A DNA stretch of 64,000 bases from an uncultured Poribacteria bacterium (GTDB taxonomy: Bacteria > Poribacteria > WGA-4E > WGA-3G), in contig CATQHZ020000001.1 in assembly GCA_958296135.2 (NCBI GenBank), forward strand, positions 1,248,001 to 1,312,000. The letters are read 5' to 3'. The first letter of the stretch is position 1; each line of letters opens with the position of its first letter. Made by a program: the position numbers and the translations under genes. Below are positions 3,575-63,994 of the stretch, in pieces. Below the pieces are notes generated by a model. That model searched no databases and had not been told where the DNA came from. It saw only the letters and a program-made list of their open reading frames with translations.

Positions 3575-3779
3575 CACCTATCGGGACAAGGATGTCCCTC
3601 CTACCGAAAAGGCCTATCGGGACCAGGAGGTCCCTCCTACCGCATGTGCACCTAGCGGGACCGGGAGGTTTCTCCTACATCGAGACCAGGAGGTTTCTCC
3701 TATGGAATGCTCACCTATCGAGACCAGGAGGTCCCTCCTACGGAATGTGCACCTATCGAGACCGGGAGGTCTCTCCTAC
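3575..3779. repeat. Cluster of six GTAG-family REP-like palindromes
   Basis: Units like CACCTATCGRGACCRGGAGGTYYCTCCTAC (reverse complement GTAGGAGGGACCTCCTGGTCCCGAT) with short, related spacers. Confidence 0.85.
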
Positions 3780-3793
3780 TGAAGGCACTGCGC

Positions 3794-4255
3794 TCAGAAA
3801 TAGGTTTGCTCGCCGCCGTAATGACGTTCTGCCTTCGGGCGTTCGTCAAATTGCCACGGCCAGTTGACAGGAATAATGCCCTCGTCAAAATAGGTGTCGG
3901 TTATCTGCCAGAATTGCAGGCGCGGGTAATGCCTACCGTTATGTGCCAGTGTGCCTTCTTCTTCAGCAAGGTTTCGCATGCCGCGCGTGACAGGATGCAA
4001 GGTGATGAAAATGCCGATGGCGGCGTTTGCGTCTCGCATCGCTGTGCGGAAGGCTCGCACCTGATTCAGGTTCAAACTCTTCCCGGATTTTACCTCTGCA
4101 ATGATAGGCAATTTCGTTTGCGCGCCCTCAGCGAGGAAGATGTTATAGTTGCGTCCGCTGTTGTAAGGCGGATCGAGATAACATATATGGTAGCTGCCAC
4201 TTTCCATCTCTCGCATGACATTGAGGTTGTCGCCGAAGTAAAGTGCGTTTTTCAT
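3794..4255 (-). pseudogene. Internally deleted DNA methyltransferase/Mrr-like fusion
   Basis: YFGDNL...DPPYNSGRNY joined directly to AEVKSG...GIFITL...YPRLQFWQI; the paralog at 26662-28150 has about 340 more residues between these segments. Confidence 0.8.
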
Positions 4256-4290: not shown

Positions 4291-5018
4291 TGTAGGCGGC
4301 CTCTCTCTACCGCGGAAACCGAAATCGCTTTGTTGGGAACACTAATCCTGCTGCGTTGCCTCGTTGCGTTTTTCGGCGGGGGTGGGTTCGGTGAAATCGT
4401 CGCCGGCGGCTTCGGCTGTCCGTCGGCGTGCTTCCCATTCAGCCCACTCACGGTTCGCAAGTTCTCTGCCGCGTGCTTCACCGATTGCCTCGCCGATTGC
4501 CTCGCGTATCTTCTGCCGCCGCTCAATCTGCTCCTTGATTAAACCGTATAAAATCATCGGAACCTCCACAAATAAAAATAAAATCAGAACGGGAATAGCC
4601 AGTGCCGTTGGAATACATCCCGTGGTATCAACGACAATCGCCCGCAATTGTAGGCGGCATCTTTCTACCGCGGAAACCGAAATCGCTTTGTTGGGAGCAC
4701 TAATCCTGCTGCGTTGCCTCGTTGCGTTTTTCGGCGGGGGTGGGTTCGGTGAAATCGTCGCCAGCGGCTTCGGCTGTCCGTCGGCGTGTTTCCCATTCAG
4801 CCCACTCACGGTTCGCAAGTTCTCTGCCGCGTGCTTCGCCGCGTGCTTCACCGATTGCTTCGCCGATTGCCTCGCGTATCTTCTGCCGCCGCTCAATCTG
4901 CTCCTTGATTAAACCGTATAAAATCATCGGAACCTCCACAAATAAAAATAAAATCAGAACGGGAATAGCCAGTGCCGTTGGAATACATCCCGTGGTATCA
5001 ACGACAATCGCCCGCAAT
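4291..5018. repeat. Direct tandem duplication (358 bp at 4291-4648; 370 bp at 4649-5018)
   Basis: Near-identical copies that differ by a few substitutions and one 12-bp repeat unit. Confidence 0.95.
4342..4557 (-). CDS. Stand-alone 71-aa copy of the C-terminal module of the upstream membrane protein
   Basis: GGAGG-TTCCG-ATG; MILYGLIKEQIERRQKIREAIGEAIGEARGRELANREWAEWEARRRTAEAAGDDFTEPTP... Confidence 0.65.
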   Translation of the reverse strand: MILYGLIKEQIERRQKIREAIGEAIGEARGRELANREWAEWEARRRTAEAAGDDFTEPTPAEKRNEATQQD

Positions 5019-5182
5019 GTCTCATAGCCGGTCCAGCCTTTTGACAAATGATAGTTAATTGCCATCCCGCCATAAACTGAGATAAGGGCACAAAAGATGA
5101 GTAGCGCGGTACCTACCCATCCGCGCCGAACACTGAAAAACTGCACCCGGTCTTTGTCTTTGGGCTGTTCATTCTGCTTCAT
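4700..5182 (-). CDS. Hypothetical 2-TM membrane protein (160 aa) with GEAI/GEAR repeats and a W-xx-W...F-x-EP tail; internal SD+ATG at 4927
   Basis: AGGAGGAGG before ATG 5182; two hydrophobic segments followed by a charged helical C-terminus. Confidence 0.85.
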   Translation of the reverse strand: MKQNEQPKDKDRVQFFSVRRGWVGTALLIFCALISVYGGMAINYHLSKGWTGYETLRAIVVDTTGCIPTALAIPVLILFLFVEVPMILYGLIKEQIERRQKIREAIGEAIGEARGEARGRELANREWAEWETRRRTAEAAGDDFTEPTPAEKRNEATQQD

Positions 5183-5219
5183 GCACTGTTTCCTCCTCCT
5201 CTCAATGGAGGTATATTGC

Positions 5220-5248
5220 ATTGTAACACAAAATGACGTGGATGTCAA
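5220..5248 (-). promoter_or_regulatory. Sigma70-type promoter for the 2-TM gene
   Basis: TTGACA-17 nt-TACAAT with a TG extension. Confidence 0.7.
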
Positions 5249-17164: not shown

Positions 17165-17755
17165 TTATGCGTTTTCGGCTTCGTGAGAAAATGTGATGCG
17201 CCGGTAGATGTCGTGCAGTGGCAATTTGCATCCGATTGAGGGGAGCAGTAGCACTGCGTCCAAGGAGCGATAGTTGCTGAGCCTCCACTGTGCGCCGTGT
17301 CGTCGATAGTGTTCGATGTGCACGCTGTCTTGCGCGATGAGGAGGTATTCTTGCAAGGATGCAAGTTGCTTGTAGCGGTTGAACTTCTCGCCCCTGTCAT
17401 ACGCCTCGGTTGAAGGCGAGAGCACCTCCACGATAAGAATCGGGTTGAGGAGGGTATCTAGGACATCGTCCTCAAATTCGGGTTCGCCGCAGACAATGAC
17501 GACATCGGGGTAGAAGTAGGAATCGTCGGGGCTCGGGCGCACCCGCATATCGCTGCTAAAAATGTCGCAATCCCGCCCTATTAATTGAGGGTAAAGCCCA
17601 TAAAATATATCCCCGGTGATGCGATTATGTGAGCGGCTTGCACCGGACATAGCGATGATTTGTCCGGTGCGGTATTCGCTTTTGTATTCGGCTTTTCGTT
17701 CCAAAGCGAGGTATGCCTCGGGGGTGAAGTATGTTTGTGCTGCGACGGTTGCCAT
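17165..17755 (-). CDS. Uma2 (DUF820) family endonuclease, copy 4
   Basis: MATVAAQ...KSEY...AMSGAS...YPDVV...VEVLSPST...DRGEKF; GGAGG upstream. Confidence 0.92.
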   Translation of the reverse strand: MATVAAQTYFTPEAYLALERKAEYKSEYRTGQIIAMSGASRSHNRITGDIFYGLYPQLIGRDCDIFSSDMRVRPSPDDSYFYPDVVIVCGEPEFEDDVLDTLLNPILIVEVLSPSTEAYDRGEKFNRYKQLASLQEYLLIAQDSVHIEHYRRHGAQWRLSNYRSLDAVLLLPSIGCKLPLHDIYRRITFSHEAENA

Positions 17756-17766
17756 GTCTGCCTCCG

Positions 17767-18345
17767 TTAATCTGTCATTGTGATACGCCGGTAGATGTCG
17801 TGCAGTGGCAATTTGCATCCGATTGAGGGGAGCAGTAACAACACTGCGTCCAAGGAGCGATAGTTGCTGAGCCTCCACTGTGTGCCGTGTCGTCGATAGT
17901 GTTCGACGCGAACGCTGTCTTGCGCGATGAGGAGGTATTCTTGCAAGGATGCAAGTTGCTTGTACCTGTTGAATTTTTCGCCTCTGTCATACGCCTCGGT
18001 TGAAGGCGAGAGCACCTCCACGACAAGGATCGGGTTGAGGAGGGTATCTAGGACATCGTCCTCAAATTCTTGTTTCCCGCAGACAATGACGACATCCGGA
18101 TAGAAATAGGAATCGTCGGGGCTCGGGCGCACACGCATATCGCTGCTAAAGACTTCGCAATCCTTGCCTCTTAACTGGAGGTTCAGTTCCGTTGAGATAT
18201 CCAGCGTGATACGATTATGTGAGCGGCTTGCGCCGGACATAGCGATGATTTGTCCGGTGCGGTATTCGCTTTTGTATTCGGCTTTTCGTTCCAAAGCGAG
18301 GTATGCCTCGGGGGTGAAGTATGTTTGTGCTGCGACGGTTGCCAT
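17767..18345 (-). CDS. Uma2 (DUF820) family endonuclease, copy 3
   Basis: Same motifs; GGAGG upstream. Confidence 0.92.
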   Translation of the reverse strand: MATVAAQTYFTPEAYLALERKAEYKSEYRTGQIIAMSGASRSHNRITLDISTELNLQLRGKDCEVFSSDMRVRPSPDDSYFYPDVVIVCGKQEFEDDVLDTLLNPILVVEVLSPSTEAYDRGEKFNRYKQLASLQEYLLIAQDSVRVEHYRRHGTQWRLSNYRSLDAVLLLLPSIGCKLPLHDIYRRITMTD

Positions 18346-18356
18346 GTCTGCCTCCG

Positions 18357-18932
18357 TTAATCTGTCATTGTGATGCGCCGGTAGATGTCGTGCAGTGGCA
18401 ATTTGCATCCGATTGAGGAGAGCACCAACACTTCCTCAAGAGTGTGATAGTTGCTGAGCCTCCACTGTGCGCCGTGTCGTCGATAGTGTTCGATGTGCAC
18501 GCTGTCTTGCGCGATGAGGAGATATTCTTGCAAGGATGCAAGTTGCTTGTACCTGTTGAATTTTTCGCCTCTGTCACGTCCCGCAGTAGAAGGCGAGAGC
18601 ACTTCGACGATAAGAATCGGGTTGAGGAGGGTGTCAAAGGCATCATCCTCAAATTCGGGTTCGCCGCAGACAACGACGACATCCGGATAGAAATAGGACT
18701 CTCGCGGATTCGGTCTCACCCGCATATCGTTGGTATGGACTTCACATCCTCGTCCCTTGAATTGGAGGTAAAGTTCGCCTGATATATTTGTAACGATGAG
18801 ACTATGTTTACGACTAGCGCCGGACATAGCGATGATTTGTCCTGCGTGGTATTCGCTTTTGTATTCGGCCTTTCGCTCGATTTTGATATATTCCTCGGGG
18901 GTGAAGTATGTTTGTGCTGCGACGGTTGCCAT
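18357..18932 (-). CDS. Uma2 (DUF820) family endonuclease, copy 2
   Basis: Same motifs; GGGAG upstream. Confidence 0.92.
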   Translation of the reverse strand: MATVAAQTYFTPEEYIKIERKAEYKSEYHAGQIIAMSGASRKHSLIVTNISGELYLQFKGRGCEVHTNDMRVRPNPRESYFYPDVVVVCGEPEFEDDAFDTLLNPILIVEVLSPSTAGRDRGEKFNRYKQLASLQEYLLIAQDSVHIEHYRRHGAQWRLSNYHTLEEVLVLSSIGCKLPLHDIYRRITMTD

Positions 18933-18943
18933 GTTTGTCTCCC

Positions 18944-19519
18944 TTAATCCTTTACTGTGATGCGCTGGTAGATGTCGTGCAGTGGCAATTTGCATCCGAT
19001 TGAGGAGAGCACCAACACTTCCTCAAGAGTGTGATAGTTGCTGAGCCTCCACTGTGTGCCGTGTCGTCGATAGTGTTCGACGCGAACGCTGTCTTGCGCG
19101 ATGAGGAGGTATTCTTGCAAGGATGCAAGTTGTTTGTAGCGGTTGAACTTCTCGCCTCTGTCATACGCCTCGGTTGAAGGCGAGAGCACCTCCACGACAA
19201 GAATCGGGTTGAGGAGGGTGTCAAGGGCATCATCCTCAAATTCGGGTTCGCCGCAGACAACGACGACATCTGGATAGACGTAGGACTCTCTTGGACTCGG
19301 GCGCACCCGCATATCGCTGGAGATAGCCACGCAATTTCGCCTTTTCAATTGGTTGTTCAGTTCAGTCACGATATCCGCTTTGATGATATTGTGCGTGAAG
19401 CTTGCGCCGGACATAGCGATGATTTGTCCTGCGTGGTATTCGCTTTTGTATTCGGCCTTTCGCTCGATTTTGATATATTCCTCGGGGGTGAAGTATGTTT
19501 GTGCTGCGACGGTTGCCAC
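18944..19519 (-). CDS. Uma2 (DUF820) family endonuclease, copy 1
   Basis: Same motifs; GTG start with AAGGAGG upstream. Confidence 0.92.
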   Translation of the reverse strand: MATVAAQTYFTPEEYIKIERKAEYKSEYHAGQIIAMSGASFTHNIIKADIVTELNNQLKRRNCVAISSDMRVRPSPRESYVYPDVVVVCGEPEFEDDALDTLLNPILVVEVLSPSTEAYDRGEKFNRYKQLASLQEYLLIAQDSVRVEHYRRHGTQWRLSNYHTLEEVLVLSSIGCKLPLHDIYQRITVKD

Positions 19520-33400: not shown

Positions 33401-33490
33401 AAGATGTCCCTCCTACCGGCATGCGGTATCGGGCCAGGGATGTTCTGCCTACCGGCATGCAATATCGGGACAAGAATGTCCCTCCTACGG
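33401..33490. repeat. Three degenerate REP-like units of the same family as 3575-3779
   Basis: Units ending GATGTCCCTCCTAC or variants, period about 36 bp. Confidence 0.75.
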
Positions 33491-45244: not shown

Positions 45245-45396
45245 TTTTTGTCATTCCTTCGCGTGTGCCGTAGCGCGGGGGCCTGTCCTCCGAGGAGAAA
45301 ACGTCCGCAGTCCAGGGTCCGCGAATGTTTGCTGTGCGCCCGGTGCATGGCGAGGGAAACCCTCGCCCTACGGTAGCGCGGGGGATTGTCGGGAAC

Positions 45397-61586: not shown

Positions 61587-61648
61587 CGGCATGCCTTGCG
61601 AGCGCGGGCGGATGTCGTTTTTATTCGTTCGCGCATTTGAACTATCGG

Positions 61649-61682
61649 ACAGGCGGATGGCTATTCCTATCCGCCTGTTTCT
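61649..61682 (+). terminator. Possible intrinsic terminator downstream of the oxidoreductase beta gene
   Basis: ACAGGCGGAT-10 nt-ATCCGCCTGT followed by a short T-rich run. Confidence 0.45.
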
Positions 61683-61710
61683 GTGTACTTACCCATTTCG
61701 GGGTTTCCCT

Positions 61711-62418
61711 ATGCGTCTGCGTGCAACCGGCATCACAAAGCACTTCGGACATCGCCCGATTGTTAAAGACGTTGACATTGCGGTTGACGCTGGAGAAGTC
61801 GTCACAATTTTCGGTCCGAACGGTGCGGGCAAGACGACGCTGCTGAAAATTCTCGCGACGCTCCTCCGGCCAACGTCCGGGCAGCTTGAGATTGAGGGCA
61901 CGGCCGCGCTTACGGATTCCCTCAACGTCCGCAGCGCGCTGGGTGTCGTCATCCATGAATCCTTGGCTTATCCCGATTTCAGTCCTTATGAAAATCTTAA
62001 ATTCTTCGGGCGGATGTATGGCATTGCGCAATTAGAAGAACGCTGCACGACGCTCCTCGCTGAAGTTGGGTTGAACCGTTTTATCCATGAACCTCTTCGG
62101 CACTTCTCACGTGGCATGACGCAGCGGTTTATGATAGCGAGGGCCCTGCTTCATCACCCTTCGGTATTGCTCTTCGATGAGCCCTTCTCTGGGCTTGATG
62201 CTGCTGCCAAGCAGTTTGTCCTCCAGCGCATTGCGCGGGAACGGGCGGAAGGCAAGGGCATTATCATCACCACACACAACACAGAATTAGGCTATCTTGC
62301 TGGCACAAGGTTTCTTTTCATGATAAACGGCGAGTTGGAGGCAGTCGCGAGGAAAGATGACATTGCGATGGGCGCGTTGGTGCTGTTATATGAGGAGCGG
62401 GTGGTAAATCTGGTTTGA
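61711..62418 (+). CDS. ccmA: Heme exporter ATP-binding protein CcmA
   Basis: GPNGAGKTT, FSRGMTQR, DEPFSGLD; upstream of ccmB. Confidence 0.85.
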   Translation: MRLRATGITKHFGHRPIVKDVDIAVDAGEVVTIFGPNGAGKTTLLKILATLLRPTSGQLEIEGTAALTDSLNVRSALGVVIHESLAYPDFSPYENLKFFGRMYGIAQLEERCTTLLAEVGLNRFIHEPLRHFSRGMTQRFMIARALLHHPSVLLFDEPFSGLDAAAKQFVLQRIARERAEGKGIIITTHNTELGYLAGTRFLFMINGELEAVARKDDIAMGALVLLYEERVVNLV

Positions 62419-62434
62419 AAATTTCGGATGCGTT

Positions 62435-62464
62435 TTGCATGCATTCTGCGGGATATGCTATAAT
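62435..62464 (+). promoter_or_regulatory. Sigma70-type promoter for the inserted 2-TM gene
   Basis: TTGCAT-18 nt-TATAAT with a TG extension. Confidence 0.65.
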
Positions 62465-62494
62465 GCATAGTAGCGGCGCGCAAGGAGAATTCTA

Positions 62495-62935
62495 GTGAAA
62501 GAGCAGCGGATATCGCTCTTAAGTCTCAGACAAGTCTGGGAGAAGCCGGGCATTTTTATCTTTTTGGCTCAAGTCATCGTGTTTTATATTATCGTCGGGC
62601 ATCACGAAATCGGAAAGGGGATTGGGTTCGCCGAGACGCTCATCGCTATCTTTGGGCATGTCACACTCTTCATTCCCGTTGCGATTTTCCACACGATGCT
62701 CATCACTGAATTAGGAGGTTGGCTGATGATTAAGTATAGAATGTTCATGGATGAGCGCGCGCAGCGCATTGCTAAGGCGGAAGCTAAGGGGAAAGCGGAG
62801 GGCATCGCCGAGGGCATCGCCGAGCGCGACCGGGAGTGGGCGGCGTGGAATGAGCGGCGGCTGGCTGCGGCGGCGCAAGGACAACCGTTTGATGAGCCAC
62901 CGCCGTTGAATACGCCACCTGCACCCCCGCAATAA
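62495..62935 (+). CDS. Hypothetical 2-TM membrane protein (146 aa) with GIAE repeats and a W-xx-W...F-x-EP tail; internal SD+ATG at 62726
   Basis: AAGGAG before GTG; tail REWAAWNERRLAAAAQGQPFDEPPP resembles that of the 4700-5182 protein. Confidence 0.85.
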   Translation: MKEQRISLLSLRQVWEKPGIFIFLAQVIVFYIIVGHHEIGKGIGFAETLIAIFGHVTLFIPVAIFHTMLITELGGWLMIKYRMFMDERAQRIAKAEAKGKAEGIAEGIAERDREWAAWNERRLAAAAQGQPFDEPPPLNTPPAPPQ

Positions 62936-63014
62936 CGCGTGGGAAACGCTCCTTTGTTTCCGTAGGGCGAGGGCCTGTCCCTCGCCTTACAAGCAGTCAA
63001 AGTGAGGTTGGCTG

Positions 63015-63212
63015 ATGATTAAGTATAGAATGTTCATGGATGAGCGCGCGCAGCGCATTGCTAAGGCGGAAGCTAAGGGGAAAGCGGAGGGCATCGCCGA
63101 GCGCGACCGGGAGTGGGCGGCGTGGAATGAGCGGCGGCTGGCTGCGGCGGCGCAAGGACAACCCTTTGATGAGCCACCGCCGTCAAACACTCCATCTGCG
63201 CTATCGCAATAG
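63015..63212 (+). CDS. Stand-alone 65-aa copy of the C-terminal module
   Basis: GAGG-TTGGCTG-ATG; near-identical to 62726-62935, lacking one 12-bp unit and with a diverged 3' end. Confidence 0.75.
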   Translation: MIKYRMFMDERAQRIAKAEAKGKAEGIAERDREWAAWNERRLAAAAQGQPFDEPPPSNTPSALSQ

Positions 63213-63295
63213 CAGGCACCGGCTTTAGGCGTGGTTGCAAACCGCGCCTACGGCATTCGCTTTACGTTTAACCTACTCACGCAGAAAAGGGAACG

Positions 63296-63994
63296 TTGAT
63301 GAAGGAAACCCTCCGTCACATCGGCACGCTCATTCGGAAAGACCTCGGGCTCCACTTCCGTTCAAAAGAGACGCTGGCTTTAATCTTTGTCTTTAGCCTG
63401 CTGGTTGTCCTCATCTTCGCGTTCGCCTTCGGGCCGGTTTTCCCTGAGAAAGCGGAGCGCGGCAAACTCACCGCCAGCGTCCTCTGGGCCGCTTTCATCT
63501 TCGCAGGAATTATCACCTTAAACCGTTCATTGACGCTTGAAAGGACGAGTGGTGCCTTGCACGGTATCCGACTGACAGGCGTTGATGCCAGCAACTTCTA
63601 CCTCGCTAAGGTTATCAGCAATCTCATTTTTCTGTCGTTGTTAGAAGTTGTCATCACGCCGATTGCGCTGCAATTCTTGGATCTCCTTAATTTGGTGACG
63701 GTAGGCGTGCTGCTGAAATTGATGGGCGTATTGAGCATCGGCACGCTCGGATTTTGTGCTGTCGGCGTGCTACTGGCAGGCATGTCAACGAGTGCCAGCG
63801 GCGGCGAAAGCCTCCTCTCTGTCATCTTGTTGCCGCTCGTCCTCCCGATTATCATGGGCGGTGCGAAATGCACCGTATCCCTGCTCGTCAATGGGACGGT
63901 GGCAAGCGGGATGTGGCTGAATTTGTTAGTTGGGTATAGTCTGATTTTTTTAGCCGCCGCCTATCTCCTCGCCGATGCTGTAATTGAGGAATAG
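63296..63994 (+). CDS. ccmB: Heme exporter permease CcmB
   Basis: KDL...RSKE, VLW, ERTSGAL.G, LLSVILLPLVLP. Confidence 0.92.
   Translation: MMKETLRHIGTLIRKDLGLHFRSKETLALIFVFSLLVVLIFAFAFGPVFPEKAERGKLTASVLWAAFIFAGIITLNRSLTLERTSGALHGIRLTGVDASNFYLAKVISNLIFLSLLEVVITPIALQFLDLLNLVTVGVLLKLMGVLSIGTLGFCAVGVLLAGMSTSASGGESLLSVILLPLVLPIIMGGAKCTVSLLVNGTVASGMWLNLLVGYSLIFLAAAYLLADAVIEE

Follow-up and report, generated by a model that had tools for sequence, protein, structure and literature searches.

A candidate Rpn-like gene-within-a-gene family with a two-helix membrane domain in Poribacteria

Gene-within-a-gene antitoxins have, to our knowledge, so far been documented for a single effector type, the Rpn nucleases. 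This study concerns a gene of similar layout in a 64,000-nucleotide stretch of DNA from an uncultured Poribacteria bacterium (assembly GCA_958296135.2, contig CATQHZ020000001.1, positions 1,248,001 to 1,312,000; hereafter the window). At a site termed locus B, a two-helix membrane protein of 146 amino acids (aa) carries a predicted internal start before its C-terminal module and is trailed by a separate copy of that module. In the part of the Rpn report covered here (Zhong et al., PNAS 2023; PMC10400941), Rpn nucleases are toxic antiphage proteins and their short form, RpnS, is made from an internal start. According to the same part of that report, 4-aa repeats begin 8-20 residues after the Met of the short form and tune the specificity between long (L) and short (S) forms, mismatched repeat numbers lead to a loss of neutralisation, which in RpnC is abolished, and second short copies downstream (RpnSs) derive from their own parent. 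No membrane-anchored Rpn-like system was found in the literature searched, which included the covered parts of PMC10400941 and of the commentary PMC10400984; the SI Appendix and Dataset S1, outside that search, may list other architectures. In the reading slightly favoured here, drawn by analogy with Rpn, locus B would be a member of a multi-copy Poribacteria family of Rpn-like L/S/Ss genes in which a two-helix membrane domain replaces the nuclease.

The family resembles Rpn in several respects. An internal Shine-Dalgarno (SD) sequence and ATG would yield a C-terminal short protein, and hypervariable 4-aa repeats, made of one hydrophobic residue plus charged residues or Gly, stand about 17-20 residues after the Met of the short form (8-20 in the covered part of the Rpn report). 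Second short copies lie just downstream and cluster with their own parent, many copies occur per genome, and the repeat-plus-tail module is also carried by PF04754 nucleases of Poribacteria. Unlike Rpn, which has an N-terminal PD-(D/E)XK nuclease and helices 2-3 of the DUF4351 bundle, the genes described here have a two-helix membrane hairpin and a W..W..RR...G.PF.EPPP tail. The trailing copies are also more numerous, with up to five in a row, and a defence-island context is lacking in the window genome. Canonical Rpn loci of Poribacteria (L101, L103, L105 and others) share EG(I/K)(A/E)-type tetrads after an internal Met and are abundant in the same order, whereas they end in helical DUF4351-like sequence where read, with no W..RR..PF.EPPP tail match in the 20 best loci.

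The lambda holin/antiholin pair S105/S107 arises from a dual-start motif with N-terminal starts two codons apart, either of which yields a membrane protein. As in lambda, where one of the products hinders membrane assembly of the other, two products of one membrane-protein gene by alternative starts are predicted here. In contrast to lambda, the second start would remove the whole membrane domain, and the locus has neither a lysis-cassette context nor a PHROGs match. A phage holin/antiholin dual-start gene was considered as an identity for L and rejected, given that no PHROGs family matched and the neighbours are genes of cellular operons.

The long gene, its internal start and its copy

The long form L, an inner-membrane protein, occupies positions 62495..62935 of the + strand, on which all features of locus B lie. 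It has a GTG start and a stop codon at 62933-62935, and its 146 residues comprise two membrane helices, a junction Met (Met78), 4-aa repeats and the W..W..RR...G.PF.EPPP tail. Its own SD, AAGGAGA, was read in the sequence 6 nucleotides (nt) 5' of the GTG (62482..62488). The N-terminal two-helix membrane domain (62495..62725), presumed to be the effector part, has hydrophobic helices modelled with a predicted local distance difference test (pLDDT) value above 90, and its family profile, N.hmm, matches 94 frames. The initial annotation had described an AGGAGG at 62713-62718 and an in-frame ATG at 62726, just after the second membrane helix, as the beginning of a 69-aa module, and this was confirmed in the sequence. 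The internal SD (62713..62718) lies 7 nt 5' of the ATG, and its duplex with the genome's own 16S tail was calculated at -11.4 kcal/mol. Read from Met78 in the frame of L, this sequence signature predicts a short form S of 69 aa (62726..62935). Two tandem 12-bp units GAGGGCATCGCC (E-G-I-A) at 62798..62821 lie within the hypervariable 4-aa repeat region and are followed by the conserved tail ERDREWAAWNERRLAAAAQGQPFDEPPP (62822..62905), which alignment and tail profile mark as the best-conserved part of the family.

The module had also been said to recur as an open reading frame (ORF) of its own, with similarity setting in at the SD, and DNA comparison bears this out. The last 69 codons of L recur 80 nt downstream as an intact 65-aa ORF, the extra short copy Ss (63015..63212). 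The DNA of the two becomes alike at 62715 in L and 63004 in Ss (GAGGTTGGCTGATG), 11 nt 5' of the ATG, so that the homology begins with the SD of the extra copy, GAGG (63004..63007, duplex -9.2 kcal/mol). Identity is 99% across 101 nt and about 88% for the remainder, and this 99%-identical 101-nt repeat is not due to chance. Compared with its parent, Ss has one 12-bp deletion (GAGGGCATCGCC), leaving it one GIAE repeat unit shorter, and most substitutions fall within the last ~35 nt. In the 3' part, five changes are silent (CCG/CCC, AAT/AAC, ACG/ACT, GCA/GCG, TAA/TAG) and four are replacements, in agreement with the earlier description of the missing unit and of protein-preserving differences; the Nei-Gojobori counts for the whole pair are 7 synonymous and 4 nonsynonymous.

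Contigs of four public DNA-type runs from one sample tile locus B, and one piece, 62957-63033, links the spacer to the head of the copy. Because the tiling contigs from four runs join spacer to copy, the duplication is no artefact of a single assembly. A contig 'joint' from 62986 to 63228 was considered as a deletion variant and rejected, its 24-nt sides lying inside multi-copy repetitive extragenic palindrome (REP) hairpins.

An AlphaFold2 model of L was built from a 46-sequence alignment and has a mean pLDDT of 78. It consists of a helix at residues 8-40, a short turn and a helix at residues 45-127, the latter running continuously through the second membrane segment, the junction, the repeats and the W..RR part, with the PF.EPPP end disordered. 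Because basic residues follow the second helix, the positive-inside rule places the C-terminal module probably in the cytoplasm. Complex prediction for residues 66-146 of L with Ss gave a score of 0.45 (runs 0.47, 0.45 and 0.44) against 0.00 for the best of three controls; at least 87% of contacts are common to the runs, and the partner pLDDT is at least 73. Of 157 solved complexes 116 reach the mark for complexes, as do 2 of 215 mismatched pairs, and passing scores of 0.60 or less came from 18 of the 157 and from both mismatches, so the score was graded as weak support for pairing.

Internal start and trailing copies across the family

The genome of the window has 10 full-length paralogs by tblastn and profiles. 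Four of the ten have trailing partial copies, five copies in total, and three further stand-alone short genes bear two tails each. A protein database search returned 261 relatives of L, the few named ones being 'hypothetical protein, Candidatus Poribacteria', and matches were found in 30 of 41 related genomes with a maximum of 38 per genome. The tail profile (36 positions) matched 1323 clusters at 50% identity with E <= 0.001; among 146 new top representatives, a membrane segment is lacking in 61 proteins of up to 110 aa and in 30 of 111-230 aa. The invariant residues among 46 aligned members, W118, R121, F132, E134, P136 and P137, are all in the tail, and in the same alignment the membrane part is far more variable. 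Profiles of the N-domain and the tail were built from the ten paralogs and scanned over all six-frame open frames of the window genome and 89 fetched loci, two duplicate loci being dropped. Of the tail-bearing frames, 97 were classed as full length and 51 as partial or orphan. A further four were excluded, two because they lie at a contig edge or have a nuclease-type head, one because it was mis-mapped, and the copy L031 because its head is out of frame. The members are related and were gathered via matches to the window protein; the counts are not independent trials, and copies with a destroyed tail would escape.

An ATG stands at the junction position in 87 of the 89 frames with an N-domain. 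The SD was scored as the pairing of the 18 nt upstream of the ATG with the 16S tail of the window genome. The junction duplexes average -9.47 kcal/mol in the family, with 69% at or below -8, compared with -2.93 kcal/mol and 4.1% for a background of 17,575 in-frame internal ATGs in long ORFs of the window genome. To separate codon choice from peptide, each peptide was kept and the synonymous codons of the six upstream codons were redrawn 500 times by genome usage. The resamples averaged -6.78 kcal/mol versus -9.41 observed, none of the 500 reached the observed mean, and 61 of 68 unique sequences exceeded the mean SD strength of their own resamples. Since the observed SD exceeds the synonymous resamples and the resampled mean is itself strong, the signal is partly driven by the amino acids, with a further part in codon choice.

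The peptides that precede the junction Met vary by subfamily (ELGGWL, EIGGSLI, WEFL, GVEVP, KEAVDI, QGVDF, GGIDI, REGGDI), yet GGAGG, AGGAG or GGAG is spelled in most subfamilies despite these unlike peptides. Close relatives of locus B all keep the core A-GGA-GG, and adjacent third positions vary (GGT/GGC/GGG, CTG/CTC/CTA). Predicted mRNA folding in a 50-nt window is weakest at the junction ATG, at -6.0 kcal/mol versus -9.4 elsewhere in the gene; 87 of the 97 genes follow this pattern, to which local base composition may contribute. Among short relatives from the protein database, 18 of 19 start at the same MIKY and one starts ten residues earlier. The initial annotation had asked whether the internal SD and ATG are conserved beyond amino-acid constraint, and they are, as the 87 of 89 ATGs and the resampling show. 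A signature of an internal translation start, an SD with an in-frame ATG, thus precedes the C-terminal module and would direct its separate synthesis.

The reading frame is uninterrupted between junction position and tail in all 51 orphan copies, and the start codon is ATG in 50 of them and GTG in the other. An SD of -6 kcal/mol or stronger precedes 42 of the 51, compared with 14% of the background. In 36 orphans a parent lies upstream in the same orientation. The onset of parental homology in these pairs is at a median distance of 14 nt from the ATG, and the values concentrate at 11-14 nt, just enough to include the SD; the distance is at least 9 nt in 30 of the 36 pairs. Homology extends only 0-1 nt 5' of the ATG in four pairs, two of which have an ATG that shares nucleotides with the parent's stop codon. 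A start codon overlapping an upstream stop is the usual arrangement for translational coupling. Over the 36 pairs, parent and copy differ by 270 synonymous and 316 nonsynonymous changes over 1725 and 6069 sites, giving a ratio of the nonsynonymous to the synonymous proportion of differences (pN/pS) of 0.33, and even the pairs that have diverged furthest (pS 0.24-0.42) remain intact.

Across species the copies change in step with their respective parents, and a same-genus genome keeps the order ccmA, parent (190 aa), copy (69 aa), ccmB. Downstream short copies that resemble their own parents, as RpnSs do, are thus present in the family. Against the 51 intact orphans one decayed copy was seen (L031), although the copy search requires an intact tail of at least 25 codons and badly decayed copies would escape it. 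By these measures the short copies are intact and selectively maintained. The initial annotation had named two sequence patterns that would speak against it, namely an SD and ATG not conserved in homologs, and downstream copies that are frameshifted or randomly bounded. Neither pattern was observed: the downstream copies are frequent, intact and bounded at or just upstream of the ATG. The longest array lies in a Candidatus Poribacteria metagenome-assembled genome (MAG), at L127:2553-4806 (+), where a two-helix parent is followed by five short copies, the last of them double-tailed, each with a GGAGG-type SD 5 nt before its ATG.

Length variation in the family proceeds in tetrads. The 43 closest full-length relatives range from 142 to 190 aa and in all 43 the difference from 146 is divisible by 4; the matching 4-aa length series accommodates 27 of the 30 short forms, and the sequences of the relatives contain varying numbers of (A/K)EG(I/K)A units. 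Hypervariable 4-aa repeats thus appear early in the predicted first helix of the short form. Tetrad repeats of the same kind also end some Uma2 proteins of other organisms (P0146, P0162, P0213). The window itself holds, at 17165-19519 (-), four head-to-tail paralogs of the Uma2 family (PF05685), putative endonucleases with a period of 587-590 nt and 85-97% identity.

Relation to Rpn nucleases and the readings considered

No N-terminal PD-(D/E)XK nuclease domain (PF04754 or PF12784) was detected in the 146-aa L, which matched no Pfam family at E up to 1 and none in NCBIfam. When the search was limited to longer proteins, it returned one match, P0121, a protein of 369 aa with PF04754 (YhgA-like, Rpn nuclease family). 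Its C-terminal end reads ...NIMKSAAETLIEQG..(KAEGIAEG)n..YRAWYADWERRRQAAAEKGIPFDDPPPP, with repeats of the (K/I)AEG type, and BLASTP aligned the window protein to it with 55% identity over 51 residues of repeats and tail (E 4e-12). The same end is found in three relatives of P0121 (P0122, P0124, P0126) and in P0127, a 279-aa protein of another type without a Pfam family. A 90%-identical copy of P0121 in a Candidatus Poribacteria MAG, L122, matches PF04754 at E 3.9e-23 and has GGAGG before an internal ATG (-10.9 kcal/mol); the scan that yielded it also gave two-helix members with a near-identical YRAWYADW tail (L123, L126, L128). The canonical Rpn P0219 (PF04754 and PF14261) shares the AEG(K/L)A repeats and continues into DUF4351 helices of the usual kind.

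Since a YhgA/Rpn nuclease confirmed by Pfam carries the same repeats and tail, homology accounts for part of the parallel with Rpn, beyond analogy, and the C-terminal module is related in sequence to that of bona fide Rpn proteins. These nuclease-plus-tail fusions came from the protein database and one genome-collection scan, and no further ones were found among the 20 best Rpn loci of the order or three more loci. An Rpn nuclease query matched 99 of 121 genomes of the order, with only weak matches in the window genome (best E 4.8e-15).

Two further sites, L125:2271-3147 (+) and L124/L029:1-481, were noted beside these fusions. The open frame at L125 encodes 292 aa and has an internal EIMRESPFYQ start (SD -9.3 kcal/mol) ahead of the same repeats and tail; a HIEAQ motif is present, and the resemblance to a nuclease is by eye only. 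The 277-aa N-domain of L125 matched nothing in Pfam or NCBIfam and was not adopted as a nuclease. In the other genome the EIMRESPFYQ-headed module with repeats and tail is a separate copy directly 3' of the repeat-tail end of another gene, at a contig edge.

The feature at locus B is real and well supported, with what appears to be an Rpn design carrying a membrane N-domain and a new tail. The conserved SD and ATG at the membrane/cytoplasm junction would be placed for separate production of a soluble 69-aa S, and it is quite likely, by the same analogy, that the short forms are made and matter. As in Rpn, S and Ss might bind the repeat helix of L and thereby govern how L self-associates, and repeat number might decide which short form suits which long form. 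Unpaired L would then assemble through its membrane hairpins and damage the membrane, as a toxin or abortive-infection effector with S as its built-in antidote, and the conserved tail would sense or bind a common partner; these are the least-supported steps. That the short form neutralises a harmful long form is given slightly less than an even chance, and a role of the family in phage defence is doubtful. Repeat number raises a further point. Given that 34 of 36 copies differ in length from their parent and that Rpn needs equal repeat numbers, the adjacent long form may not be the target of the extra copies, which may instead act on other paralogs, serve as decoys or form a recombination reservoir.

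The Rpn-like logic with a membrane effector, as first proposed, stood in part: architecture, internal start, copies and shared module agree with it, whereas the housekeeping context and the lack of DUF4351 do not. Several results weigh against it. The module is of equal length in only 2 of the 36 parent-copy pairs. Searches of Pfam, NCBIfam, PADLOC and PHROGs assigned the N-domain to no family of toxins, holins or defence proteins, and a protein atlas search with residues 1-85 returned unnamed clusters only, at 0.86-0.87, below the 0.9 level of a lead. The three-helix DUF4351 bundle that forms the RpnS dimer fold is absent from the model, which has a single helix and a disordered end, and no PF14261 match was found at E up to 1. 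Gly, Glu and Val codons account for part of the SD strength, as the resampled mean of -6.8 kcal/mol indicates. A look-up of RNA runs listed none that contains 61600-63990, and S is a product predicted from sequence. Each of the ten loci of the window genome is a single insertion within or next to a housekeeping cluster and points the same way as its neighbours; no recognised defence system was found near them with Pfam and PADLOC among 83-88 neighbouring proteins of this one genome; and its three short double-tail genes have no nearby membrane parent.

The housekeeping sites and the lack of defence neighbours fit a long/short regulatory pair outside defence, in which the membrane-tethered tail and the soluble copies would compete for one partner that binds W..RR..PF.EPPP, with the repeats setting the reach and without toxicity or any link to phage. 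The tail, rather than the membrane domain, is indeed the most conserved part, it occurs in many soluble stand-alone or double-tail proteins (the 61 and 30 of 146 top representatives mentioned above), and the loci lie in housekeeping operons where the neighbours searched included no defence genes. We nevertheless regard such a pair as unlikely: 10-38 matches per genome, a patchy presence in 30 of 41 genomes and an operon insertion confined to one genus suit accessory or selfish genes better, and the module is also carried by Rpn nucleases, toxic antiphage proteins in the covered part of PMC10400941. Selfishness could take the form of an addiction cassette, an L/S unit that spreads into intergenic sites of operons and is kept because loss of a short-lived S would free a toxic L, with no gain for the host. 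Insertion between ccmA and ccmB in 3 of 3 genomes of the genus with no tail match there in 21 of 21 outside it, other copies in operon orientation inside the ftsA-ftsZ, minCD and lpxBK clusters, and multi-copy REP-like hairpins flanking the units would all suit such a cassette. Less likely again than the regulatory pair, it is weakened by a search, though non-exhaustive, that identified no transposase, terminal repeats or target duplications; moreover, it shares the presumed toxicity step with the Rpn-like reading and differs from it only in the beneficiary, which sequence cannot decide.

At the other extreme, no separate short protein would exist. The SD-like motif and the Met would then be by-products of Gly/Glu-rich codons and a structural Met, or a pause site for membrane insertion, and the copies would be neutral debris of unequal recombination at the 12-bp repeats or REP elements. 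Amino acids alone do give a fairly strong SD (-6.8 kcal/mol resampled versus -2.9 for the background), recombination-prone repeats are present, and one copy, L031, has decayed. This explanation is nonetheless improbable, because the observed SD is stronger than all 500 synonymous resamples, because 51 copies are intact against one decayed, including pairs with pS of 0.24-0.42 and with pN/pS at 0.33, and because the 5' boundaries of the copies are concentrated a little 5' of the SD, or else the ATG and the parent's stop overlap. Copies also occur at the same place across species, and stand-alone short genes are common.

For the Rpn-like reading, a modular design is suggested by the finding that one hypervariable short module is attached to a nuclease in some proteins and to a membrane hairpin in others. 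A broader version is speculative: the tetrad-repeat short module might be a portable regulator mounted on unrelated killing domains, the membrane version might represent a new gene-within-gene class of toxin-antitoxin or abortive-infection system that kills via the membrane, and the arrays of up to five extra short genes might be length-variant antidotes or decoys. If the design is indeed modular, this would widen the search space for hidden intragenic regulators, offer a small two-part system (146 aa with 65-69 aa) for studying repeat number and pairing specificity, and give a first functional lead for a family of dozens of unannotated genes per genome in sponge-associated Poribacteria. The family also represents a conserved class of 60-110-aa genes and internal starts that annotation has missed.

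Flanks, genomic context and other loci

The cassette had been placed between ccmA and ccmB, and the neighbours of locus B are indeed an ATP-binding cassette (ABC) ATPase (PF00005, E 9e-31) and CcmB (PF03379, E 4e-26). The insertion is present in 3 of 3 genomes of the window's genus; at the ccmB locus of 21 of 21 genomes outside the genus no tail match was found, and the ccmA-ccmB gap there is 21-182 nt (8 loci in + orientation). With ten paralogs across the window genome in addition, a component of the Ccm system was rejected as an identity for the gene. L, Ss and locus A, a second locus in the window, have no family in Pfam (E up to 1 for the 146-aa protein), NCBIfam, PADLOC or PHROGs.

The cassette had also been credited with a promoter of its own. 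A possible promoter, TTGCAT (62435-62440), 18 nt and TATAAT (62459-62464), is present at 62435..62464 (+) and was read by eye; it is a weak consensus match and was missed by the consensus scan because the -35 hexamer matches just 3 of 6 positions. A REP-like hairpin with a 12-bp stem (62955..62990, +) occupies the spacer between L and Ss, with a fold z-score of -3.9 for 62936-63014. The terminator scan called no intrinsic terminator at locus B, and this hairpin was not called because it has no T tract. A second REP-like hairpin lies 3' of the extra copy (63213..63250, +), with a fold z-score of -3.2 for 63213-63295 and high contig depth at 63225-63261, so that such multi-copy hairpins follow both L and Ss. 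The summed contig depth over the two elements is up to about 100x that of the flanks, which indicates an element present in many copies in the sample. REP-like palindromic families of the GTAGGGCGAGGG...CCCTCGCCTTAC type occur in the window at 62929-63002, 63225-63261, 3591-3817, 33403-33490, 454-499 and 45345-45390.

The sites occupied by the loci of the window genome are ccmA|ccmB, ftsA|ftsZ (with two trailing copies), after minC-minD, after lpxB-lpxK and before holA. The paralog with two short copies between ftsA and ftsZ, in the cell-division cluster, lies at L097:12198-13405 (-), equivalent to G000:C1:4806198-4807405. To judge from its distribution, the family behaves as an accessory, mobile gene set, and in the window genome it is not among recognised defence genes. 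PADLOC on 83 neighbours returned generic ABC-ATPase matches, one TnpB, one methyltransferase about 4 kb away and one PD-DExK gene. The last encodes a 201-aa protein at L096:4066-4668 (+) (G000:C1:4788066-4788668), matched by the PADLOC entry 'PD_DExK, CAS-associated' at E 5e-50 and without a Pfam family, directly before paralog p6. A 67%-identical homolog stands directly after the B-like copy in a same-genus genome (L003:2123-2725), and a further PD-DExK match lies beside the B-like array of a second same-genus genome. The PD-DExK gene has 36 matches in the window genome and 41 in a relative, often in tandem arrays; as it is itself a 36-match family in the window genome, a specific partnership with the family was not adopted.

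Locus A, on the - strand of the window, has a long-form paralog of 182 aa (4700..5248) with GGAGG 5 nt before an ATG at 4925-4927 (-10.5 kcal/mol), from which a 75-aa S part would be read (4703..4927). In its trailing copy (4342..4648; repeat families D3 and D4) the duplicated part includes the second membrane helix, with 91 nt of homology 5' of the ATG, and an S-type ORF of 71 aa with one repeat unit fewer (4345..4557). A 153-aa ORF beside locus A (3794-4255, -) has a borderline match to the restriction-endonuclease family Mrr_cat (E 4e-4, just below the Pfam cut-off) and may be a fragment.

The three soluble stand-alone genes with double tails lie outside the window at G000:C1:4797670-4801212 (-). 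They encode 112-124 aa, each with two W..RR..PF.EPPP tails; no membrane parent is near them, and a PIN-domain gene and a 196-aa gene stand between them. In a same-genus genome the equivalent double-tail module is fused to a membrane domain of its own (L037, open frames of 255-257 aa).

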